From the sequence record ON556632.1: a stretch of 42,991 nt of DNA; one strand, 5' to 3'. This document shows positions 30,361 through 30,655 of the stretch, piece after piece. The position numbers and the translations under genes were made by a program. This DNA is from Escherichia phage hz69. The notes under the pieces were generated by a model. It was not told where the DNA came from. It did no database searches and saw only the letters and a program-made list of their open reading frames with translations. Within the stretch, counting starts at the first letter, position 1, and the number at the start of each line of letters is the position of its first letter.

Positions 30361-30381
30361 AGCCCCGCCTTAAAGCGGGGC
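30361..30381 (-). other. leader hairpin (GCCCCGC-CTTAAA-GCGGGGC) about 25 nt upstream of the Rz RBS
   Basis: 7-bp GC stem followed on the - strand by UUACUUAUCG. Confidence 0.4.
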
Positions 30382-30587
30382 GCTAGGCCTTATCATTTAA
30401 ACATAGAAACGGCGTAATCTCAGTAAACCAGTTACTTTTTACACAAGCAATAGAGTATGGCCCTTCCGAACGCGTCAGCGCAACTACACTCGGACTTAAC
30501 GTCCGGCTCCGTTACCTGCCACGCCGCGGTCGCTTGTTCATACTTCACAAGCTCAGGTGGAGCTTAGCATATTTTTAGTGAAAAGTC

Positions 30588-30603
30588 AACTATTCGAATA
30601 GTT
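30588..30603. repeat. perfect 16-bp palindrome AACTATTCGAATAGTT
   Basis: Built from the same GAATAG/CTATTC half-sites as the promoter dyads; in the 270-bp non-coding region between Rz and promoter copy B. Confidence 0.6.
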
Positions 30604-30655
30604 TATTCCAACATTTACAATTGAGTGGAATAACTGGAATAGGTAAATAAATAGT

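Follow-up and report, generated by a model that had tools for sequence, protein, structure and literature searches.

A predicted promoter and a conserved structured leader RNA ahead of the Rz-scaffold-capsid unit of Escherichia phage hz69

Escherichia phage hz69 is a Kagunavirus-like siphophage of the Guernseyvirinae, and the 42,991 nucleotides of its sequence record ON556632.1 make up the stretch analyzed here, which we refer to as the window. Between Rz, the gene for the i-spanin, and a group of small genes on the plus strand, the window has a non-coding gap of 375 bp (30338-30712). In the reading that we favor, with moderate confidence and on the basis of sequence comparison, this gap holds a regulated promoter and a cis-acting structured 5′ leader of the Rz-Rz1-scaffold-capsid unit, both on the minus strand. 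The leader is about 200 nt long and lies downstream of the predicted promoter. An initial annotation of this region, made from its letters without database searches, had drawn attention to a palindrome of operator half-sites, direct GGAATA repeats, and a GC hairpin, and had suggested that these mark either a late promoter with a regulator site for the capsid operon or an element that acts at the RNA level. The coordinates of the features discussed later are collected in Table 1.

A conserved, non-coding leader with a strand-specific RNA structure

With a 701-bp query around the gap, matches were obtained in 193 records of phages that infect Escherichia, Salmonella, or related hosts, and the 375-bp intergenic region itself is kept at 90-99% identity in 180 of 182 records, which include both Escherichia and Salmonella phages. 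Nucleotide diversity was determined from 35 Kaguna-type genomes aligned over 3.2 kb. It is 0.034 in the leader (30382-30560) and likewise 0.034 in the segment that contains the hairpin and the ribosome-binding site (RBS), compared with 0.18, 0.26, and 0.33 at the third codon positions of Rz, scaffold, and capsid, respectively, and with 0.066-0.15 at the first and second codon positions of these genes. In this alignment, conservation across the head-gene region peaks in the leader. Three contigs (L036, L037, and L039) have leaders of 93-95% identity and Rz proteins of 71-73% identity. Since the diversity of the leader is below that of coding sequence and the leader is kept beside a divergent Rz, this non-coding stretch is more constrained than the neighboring proteins. 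The conservation also lifts the palindrome, repeat, and hairpin features above chance. Relative to the same three contigs, the Rz/Rz1 cassette (29951-30337) is mosaic, and the flanking leader and the block upstream of the scaffold gene are nearly identical, which suggests that the cassette is exchanged between conserved flanks.

Some records carry an open reading frame (ORF) within the leader, and one possible reading is that the leader encodes a protein or a leader peptide of 36-38 aa. The frame is open in most sequences, its AFGRA-LYC portion is common to Kaguna and Jersey types, and the Jersey-type stop codon abuts the terminal hairpin. Against this reading, the variable alignment columns are distributed over the three codon positions as 7/8/8, with no third-position bias, and frameshifting indels are found in L004, in L019, and in the window type, while the nucleotide motif TTCGGAAGGGCC is invariant throughout. 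One-nucleotide indels alter the start codon and the N-terminus between variants, there is no good RBS, and the ORF has no match in PHROG. The small-protein reading was rejected on the codon-position and frameshift tests; we judge the ORF to be non-coding and regard a coding role for the leader as extremely unlikely.

On the minus strand, the 5′ half of the leader forms four helices: a 5′ hairpin (P1) and, directly after it, a long arm in which P2 and P2a lead up to P3 as the apical hairpin. Part of the conserved motif GCGUUCGGAAGGGCC, and likewise part of the conserved GCGTTCGGAAGGGCC motif (30459-30473), makes up the 3′ strand of P2. RNAalifold was run separately on Kaguna-type and Jersey-type leaders, which are so diverged that BLAST aligns two short blocks only, and both runs gave the same topology. 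Among the Kaguna-type sequences, 95.7% of the cells pair, compared with 29-37% when the partners are slid, and four pairs change on both sides. Examples of compensatory changes are GGGAC/GUCCU versus GGUGC/GCACU in P3 and C-G versus U-A in P2. A covariance model built from Kaguna-type sequences only finds the Jersey-type leaders in the right place, with E-values of 2e-6 to 4e-5; it also matches two Cornell-related contigs (E = 0.03) and has a single match in the window. In a cross-lineage alignment that was fitted with the model and that spans few independent lineages, 92% of the cells pair (29-41% with slid partners) and 15 of 28 pairs change on both sides, a result reached by none of 500 shuffles.

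Base pairs that are kept through compensatory changes across lineages provide good, if not exhaustive, evidence for a conserved structured RNA, and the RNA-level element that the initial annotation had put forward as one of two options thus appears to be present. P2 and P3 contain conserved G-U pairs, which would turn into A-C mismatches in a transcript of the opposite strand, so that the fold is specific to the minus-strand RNA. An alternative pairing between the P2 5′ strand and ACGCCG (30412-30417), obtained from a single-sequence fold, was discarded because it is broken in L029 (as judged from the alignment by eye), where P2 is kept by compensation.

These observations bear on the possibility that the region is conserved as DNA only, serving either recombination, as a linker beside the exchangeable Rz/Rz1 cassette, or the binding of proteins at a set of sites, the RNA folds being incidental. 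The mosaic Rz of the three contigs, set between conserved flanks, fits such a reading, as does a second conserved block beyond Rz1 (29761-29880, diversity of about 0.05). However, the compensatory changes and the conserved G-U pairs point to selection on the structure of the minus-strand RNA, and a linker would leave unexplained why the helices are kept with different sequences in the Jersey type. We consider conservation as DNA only to be very unlikely.

No Rfam family matched the whole window at gathering thresholds. A permissive Rfam search of 30300-30720 gave wcaG as the best match, with 19.1 bits against a threshold of 42 (E = 0.27). A scan of viral contigs for TYCGGAAGG-N9-TAYTGCT returned mostly chance matches and no lineage beyond those obtained with the Rz protein. 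From these comparisons, the leader is best filed as a new structured RNA motif that belongs to no catalogued family, is restricted to Guernseyvirinae, and is coupled to a promoter with a conserved putative array; as a motif absent from Rfam, it could be added there.

Downstream of the four helices, the central leader contains GUUUCU (30405-30410, within GAUUACGCCGUUUCU), which is predicted to pair with AGAAAC (30338-30343), located between the RBS and the AUG; this modeled pairing could limit translation of Rz. The loops and single strands of the leader are also invariant in sequence.

The leader ends in a long two-part stem-loop, in which a lower stem of GAUAAG (30389-30394) and CUUAUC (30352-30357) is located below an upper G-C stem (30362-30381). 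The upper stem has eight pairs, seven of them G-C, and a loop of 4 nt, and is followed by TTTACTTATC on the minus strand. The GC hairpin noticed earlier is therefore real, although its 3′ end lies 16 nt, rather than 25 nt, before the GGAG of the Rz RBS, and it is not a separate element: it forms the tip of the longer stem-loop that closes the leader of about 200 nt, which had gone unremarked. In a 20-kb scan, hairpin 30362-30381 was the top terminator-like site on the minus strand, and it is annotated as a terminator in the relative fBC-Eco01. With its tail UUUACUUAU, the stem-loop of the window phage has the G-C stem and U tract of an intrinsic terminator. Further terminator-like sites on the minus strand lie inside the operon, at 27969-27990 and 23897-23916.

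In relatives, the sequences of the stem-loop differ. One pair of the upper stem covaries (C-G, G-C, and U-A), the Jersey-type lower stem is UAUACG/CGUAUA below a different G-C stem, and in the Cornell and PSDA2 types, 13-15 uninterrupted pairs are formed by sequence unrelated to these. In all four lineage groups, the position just before the start codon is taken by a stem-loop with internal loops, for which 16-27 pairs are predicted and which always ends a short distance 5′ of the Rz RBS. The terminator features are not kept: the Jersey-type tail is UUAGCGUAU, with a weak U tract, and in the Cornell and PSDA2 types, the long stem is followed by a UGUUACG-type sequence with no U run. Since the stem is kept and the U tract is lost in the sister lineages, the conserved feature is the stem and not termination.

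The predicted promoter and the upstream heptamer array

A promoter for the Rz-scaffold-capsid unit appears to be present immediately upstream of the leader, as judged from consensus, conservation, and independent annotation. It is an extended -10 promoter of the sigma-70 type, with a predicted transcription start near G30554. The depositors of fBC-Eco01 list a predicted host promoter at 2862-2890 of the locus, which corresponds to 30561-30589 of the window, and a terminator over the hairpin. To describe the footprint of conservation, we used 49 distinct promoter sequences from three lineages, namely, Kaguna-type, Jersey-type, and Cornell-type phages. In this set, conserved blocks occur at fixed spacing and the spacers between them are variable. 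T.GAYT ... TG.TA..CT is kept at fixed spacing in all three lineages, and the TG and TA..CT of the -10 region have a constant distance from the heptamer array described later. The -35 hexamer is good in the window phage (TTGACT) and degenerate in the sister lineages, where it becomes TAGACT and then TGGATT. Such decay is as expected of a promoter that is aided by a bound factor.

Upstream of the promoter, the direct GGAATA repeats that the initial annotation placed at 30628-30646 were recovered on the plus strand at 30628-30633 and 30637-30642. Read on the minus strand, they form TATTCC-AG-TTATTCC, which has no other exact match in the window. Across the 49 sequences, the columns of TATTCC-NN-TTATTCC are invariant and the flanks are variable. 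Closer to the promoter, an inverted heptamer pair is found, of which the TATTC arm overlaps the right half of the palindrome; GGAATA-N3-TATTC is nearly invariant in the set, and a perfect GGAATAA-A-TTATTCC occurs in three Cornell-type contigs (L206, L211, and L215). The GGAATA repeats are the best-conserved DNA motif of the region and, because they are invariant amid varying flanks, the array is a putative protein-binding site.

Another array of the GGAATA type is found at 29785-29858 on the minus strand, a short distance 5′ of the start codon of the scaffold gene (29759). It comprises GGAATA-N4-GGAATAG (29843-29858, overlapping the end of Rz1), an inverted pair GGAATAATTTATTC (29814-29827), TTGACA (29808-29813), and a hairpin, AATCCGGG-TGG-CCCGGATT (29785-29803), whose outer pairs covary. 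This second array is kept in Kaguna-, Jersey-, Cornell-, and PSDA-2-type phages, with a diversity of about 0.05. In the PSDA-2 type (L173, 820-900), an array with a shorter internal spacer precedes a terminator, and about 150 bp separate it from a different, downstream promoter, whose extended -10 matches the consensus (TGTATAAT). A third match to the heptamer pair, at 27379-27393, was set aside because it is most simply a junction of RBS, stop, and start.

Three proteins encoded in the window carry DNA-binding signatures and were considered as binders of the array: an HTH_17 protein (1-171), a Cro/CI-type protein (2736-2951), and a NinH-like protein of 86 aa (36435-36695, minus strand), which is encoded just upstream of the terminase genes. 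The HTH_17 protein and its neighbor (168-401) were rejected because they were not seen in the 24.2-kb non-structural part of FSL SP-031, a phage that bears arrays, and the Cro-like protein because it is present in Tsm2, which has none. The NinH-like protein is present in the array-bearing phages SETP3 and FSL SP-031 and was not detected in the array-less Tsm2. Among the contigs of a viral collection, those of the Kaguna and Jersey types and most of the Cornell type gave a match to it, none of seven array-less contigs from another lineage did, and two array-bearing contigs were missed; this search was limited by its pattern, and phylogeny confounds the comparison. The protein scores 24 bits against the Pfam NinH family, below the cut-off of 29.8 bits, and a search by sequence gave no relative in the PDB. 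As a candidate binder of the array, it is a lead only.

The perfect 16-bp palindrome described in the initial annotation is present at 30588-30603 and is the only one in the window. Block shuffles gave an expectation of 0.69 such palindromes per window, with at least one in 49% of the shuffles, so that the palindrome alone is not beyond chance. Its right half (30596-30603) overlaps one arm of the conserved inverted repeat, GGAATAA-N-TATTC, and its left half is confined to the Kaguna type. The complete palindrome is found in nearly all Kaguna-type sequences, is lost in Jersey-type (CTTTATTCAAAAAGTA) and Cornell-type phages, and is broken in L029. Chance expectation and loss in the sister lineages together weaken the palindrome as a candidate for the key element of the region.

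Elsewhere in the window, an operator-like inverted repeat, AATAG-N4-CTATT, occurs at 12 sites with at most one mismatch, compared with 1.1 expected (2982, 3026, 5464, 9120, 21776, 30672, 41109, and 42518, plus weaker sites). It overlaps the -10 of early-type promoters, including the neighboring plus-strand promoter (30672-30685), and sites adjoin the divergently transcribed Cro/CI-type gene; SETP3 has five exact copies. This motif probably defines an early regulon of the phage.

The similarity between this motif and the palindrome raises the possibility that the latter is a functional operator, bound by the Cro/CI-type helix-turn-helix (HTH) protein, that represses or times the capsid promoter. 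The GAATAG half-sites are common to both, a one-mismatch copy of the motif (AAAAGTCAACTATT, 30581-30594) overlaps the -35 of the capsid-operon promoter, and the palindrome is held by nearly all Kaguna-type sequences. However, the half-sites of the palindrome stand in the reverse arrangement, with zero spacer instead of 4 bp, a palindrome of this kind is expected by chance, and the promoter and array persist in the lineages that lack the palindrome and in L029, where it is broken. The two motif systems also dissociate: in the parts examined, FSL SP-031 has arrays and no AATAG-N4-CTATT site, and Tsm2 has such sites and no arrays, opposite patterns that suggest that the systems are independent. 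We find it unlikely that the palindrome serves as an operator. The earlier proposal of a late promoter with a regulator site is retained in the form of the predicted promoter and the putative array, without the palindrome as the conserved element.

Table 1. Positions of the features discussed, numbered along the window
Feature	Position	Strand	Basis or remark
RBS GGAG (30342-30345) and start codon ATG (30335-30337) of Rz (i-spanin)	30335..30345	-	ORF list, annotations of relatives
Long two-part stem-loop just upstream of the Rz RBS	30352..30394	-	Folds, covariation
Central leader, A-U-rich, nearly invariant, includes GAUUACGCCGUUUCU	30395..30465	-	Alignment, diversity, fold
ORF of 38 aa, GTG start (36-38 aa among records)	30432..30548	-	Hypothetical protein in some records; judged non-coding
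Leader 5′ domain	30466..30552	-	RNAalifold, pair counts, covariance model
P1 (hairpin)	30547-30552 / 30532-30537	-	
P2	30521-30529 / 30466-30473	-	
P2a	30511-30518 / 30476-30484	-	
P3 (hairpin)	30501-30505 / 30491-30495	-	
Predicted extended -10 sigma-70 promoter, TTGACT-17-TGcTAAGCT	30561..30589	-	Sequence reading, conservation, fBC-Eco01 annotation
-10 TAAGCT	30561-30566	-	
TG of extended -10	30568-30569	-	
-35 TTGACT	30584-30589	-	17-bp spacer
Perfect 16-bp palindrome AACTATTCGAATAGTT	30588..30603	.	Joins conserved TATTC arm to Kaguna-specific GAATAG abutting the -35
Inverted heptamer pair GGAATAA-AC-TATTC, proximal part of putative array	30596..30609	-	Centered at about -48; third, inverted copy at 30603-30609
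Direct heptamer repeats TATTCC-AG-TTATTCC, distal part of putative array	30627..30641	-	About -74 to -88 from the predicted start

Possible modes of action of the leader

In the favored reading, host RNA polymerase with sigma-70 would start at the extended -10 promoter, and the four upstream GGAATA-type heptamers, two direct and two inverted, would most likely bind a dimeric or oligomeric protein that tunes the promoter. The leader would then act in cis on its own transcript and set the expression of the downstream operon; action in cis is suggested because the element invariably adjoins Rz on its 5′ side, with a constant distance to the RBS. In the window phage, part of the transcripts probably stop at the terminator-like terminal stem-loop. 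Since only the stem is kept in the sister lineages, a role of this stem-loop in RNA processing or stability, or in control of Rz translation, seems more likely. The invariant sequence of the 5′ domain is probably bound by a factor or by RNA polymerase itself.

Among the roles open to the leader, we rank processing, stability, or translational control first, this being the only role that would fit all lineages. Partial termination at the hairpin in the Kaguna type, which would set the level of operon expression or yield an RNA of about 190 nt, is ranked second. Antitermination by the 5′ domain in the manner of put or nut sites is ranked third; it would account for the invariance of loops and linkers, which equals that of the stems, and for the 18-kb operon with internal terminators that follows.

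Several observations weigh against the promoter and leader as proposed, or limit how far the proposal reaches. The -10 hexamer TAAGCT matches the consensus at three of six positions only, and for this reason a simple promoter scan did not list the promoter. A start at the usual 7 nt from the -10 would be located within the P1 stem in Jersey-type and Cornell-type phages. The z-score of single-sequence folding is only -2.1, the cross-lineage pair counts are subject to the alignment limits given previously, and FSL SP-031 and the PSDA2 type have differing 5′ domains that the covariance model does not detect. As for the array, its second copy upstream of the scaffold gene sits in transcribed sequence, and the PSDA-2 array is inverted and 150 bp from its promoter; together, these indicate that the array is not bound to one promoter geometry. 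The sole published Kagunavirus RNA-Seq study gives expression at the gene level only, and our literature search found no study that maps transcription units of Kagunavirus or Jerseyvirus.

The closest known arrangement is the late leader of phage lambda (PR′, qut, 6S RNA, tR′, and Q), and the closest RNA mechanism would be that of HK022 put. As in lambda, a sigma-70 promoter precedes about 190 nt of non-coding leader, at the end of which a G-C stem carries a U-rich tail; the genes that come next, for lysis and morphogenesis, belong to a long operon with internal terminators. Unlike in lambda, the leader is a conserved multihelix RNA whose U tract sister lineages have lost, the gene immediately downstream encodes a spanin, with holin and endolysin encoded elsewhere, no Q-like protein was recognized among the 10 small proteins scanned, and the upstream heptamer array has no lambda counterpart. 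The put RNA of HK022 provides cis-acting, factor-independent antitermination (PMC9378689), in which the RNA suppresses termination through the beta-prime zinc-binding domain of RNA polymerase. In put as in the 5′ domain, two adjacent stem-loop arms start within a few nucleotides of a phage promoter, the first transcribed nucleotides include a -10-like sequence, and sequence is conserved together with structure. The two differ in size, with about 70 nt and two helices in put compared with approximately 90-100 nt and four helices here, and the element described here occurs as a single copy in the late operon of a virulent phage, where an effect on polymerase is only hypothetical.

These likenesses define a rival reading in which the leader is an antitermination switch of the lambda PR′-6S-tR′ or HK022 put type. 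The promoter would be constitutive or early, most transcripts would stop after about 190 nt at 30362-30381, and the two arms of the 5′ domain, acting by themselves or together with a phage protein, would let polymerase pass this hairpin and the sites at 27969-27990 and 23897-23916. The layout fits, from promoter through leader to G-C stem with UUUACUUAU and then lysis and morphogenesis genes, as do the additional terminator-like sites within the operon. The two adjacent arms begin a few nucleotides from the predicted start, as in putL, a -10-like repeat resembling a pause element (TGAGCT, with no A at position 2; TACGCT in the Jersey type) is found at the start site, and the invariant loops and single strands suggest a binding partner. 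Conversely, no antiterminator of the Q, N, or another family was recognized in Pfam and PHROG searches with the 10 small proteins, which gave only HTH and NinH-like matches, and none is listed in the Bas76 annotation. A search of the complete HK022 genome with the covariance model gave no match up to E = 10, Jersey-type phages have a weak U tract and those of the Cornell and PSDA2 types none, and the 5′ domain is replaced in FSL SP-031 and the PSDA2 type, although the polymerase of their hosts is the same. Weighing both sides, we regard such a switch as improbable. In a more specific proposal, to which we give slightly less credence, a new RNA element, the two arms of the 5′ domain (30466-30552), would associate with Escherichia coli RNA polymerase immediately after initiation, with or without a small phage protein, and confer terminator resistance across the 18-kb late operon, with 30362-30381 as the gate; the domain would then be a put-like RNA for processive antitermination in a subfamily of virulent phages, the Guernseyvirinae.

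The promoter-to-terminator unit could also be a free-standing small RNA gene, whose transcript of about 190 nt would act in trans on RNAs or proteins of the phage or host, with expression of the operon as leak-through. Short terminated late-promoter transcripts of lambdoid phages that act as small RNAs would set a precedent. Consistent with such a gene, a promoter and a terminator delimit the unit, and its sequence is very strongly conserved, also in the unpaired stretches. However, the longest antisense matches within the window are 11-14 nt, which is at chance level, sister lineages have the leader without a terminator, and the element is always next to Rz, on its upstream side, with an unchanging distance to the RBS. 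We consider a trans-acting RNA quite unlikely.

Other known systems also offer points of comparison. Stem-loops that stabilize or process RNA are found in 5′ untranslated regions and intercistronic regions, for example, the ompA 5′ hairpin and the RNase III sites of T7. The leader resembles these in having a hairpin near its 5′ end and a two-part stem-loop with internal loops before the RBS, and similar G-C hairpins precede other start codons of the operon (29785-29803 and 27582-27597). It differs in that such elements are usually conserved in structure only, whereas here the loops and linkers are nearly invariant within the Kaguna type. With regard to the promoter, Mu C/Mor and P2 Ogr act at activator-dependent phage late promoters. 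A weak or variable -35, a conserved inverted repeat centered at about -48, and more sites upstream are features in common, whereas the motif is another one, the -35 is near consensus in the window phage, a second array lies in transcribed sequence, and the array of one lineage is inverted and distant from its promoter. In conAn, a further antitermination system, the RNA part is located in a long leader behind the main operon promoter. The conAn systems are bipartite antitermination leaders of Gram-positive conjugative elements (PMC8191782), a host range unrelated to that of the window phage.

Phages of Kagunavirus and Jerseyvirus are widely isolated for therapy against E. coli and Salmonella. 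Within their head-gene module, no non-coding stretch is more strongly conserved than the region described here, which offers a defined predicted promoter, a defined putative protein-binding array, and a defined structured RNA for testing. If the leader controls the output of the capsid operon, this would explain stoichiometry and timing in a phage without a polymerase of its own, and the leader would also be a target or tool for the engineering of these phages. To a specialist, the element would be of use more than a surprise; an action of its 5′ domain on RNA polymerase would make it notable, as a rare second example of put-type RNA antitermination.

Genomic setting and further observations

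The annotated relatives Bas76 and fBC-Eco01 have the same gene order as the window. Late genes on the minus strand run from 35961 down to 31107 and encode terminase, portal, a MuF-like protein, and a Hoc-like protein. The Hoc-like gene is followed by an insert of small genes on the plus strand (30713-31094), a site at which relatives have other genes or no gene. The promoter of this insert (30656-30687) is an exact 32-nt duplicate of 21760-21791, with the operator embedded in both copies, and the duplicated promoters drive two separate plus-strand gene inserts within the minus-strand late region. After the insert, the minus strand continues with Rz (29951-30337), the first gene of its unit, the embedded Rz1, the scaffold gene (start at 29759), the major capsid protein gene (28006-29055), and the remaining head and tail genes. 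A search of the DNA found no tRNA or tmRNA.

A hairpin on the plus strand, GGCGGGAACCACCCGC followed by TTTTCG (21700-21722), is located upstream of the minus-strand gene for the tail chaperone; its orientation is wrong for a terminator of the late operon. A further non-coding block, at 27541-27660, is also highly conserved, with a diversity of approximately 0.04. It contains the hairpin GGCCCTTCGGGGCC (27582-27597), located a few nucleotides 5′ of an RBS, which is one of a series of G-C hairpins found 5′ of start codons in the head operon.

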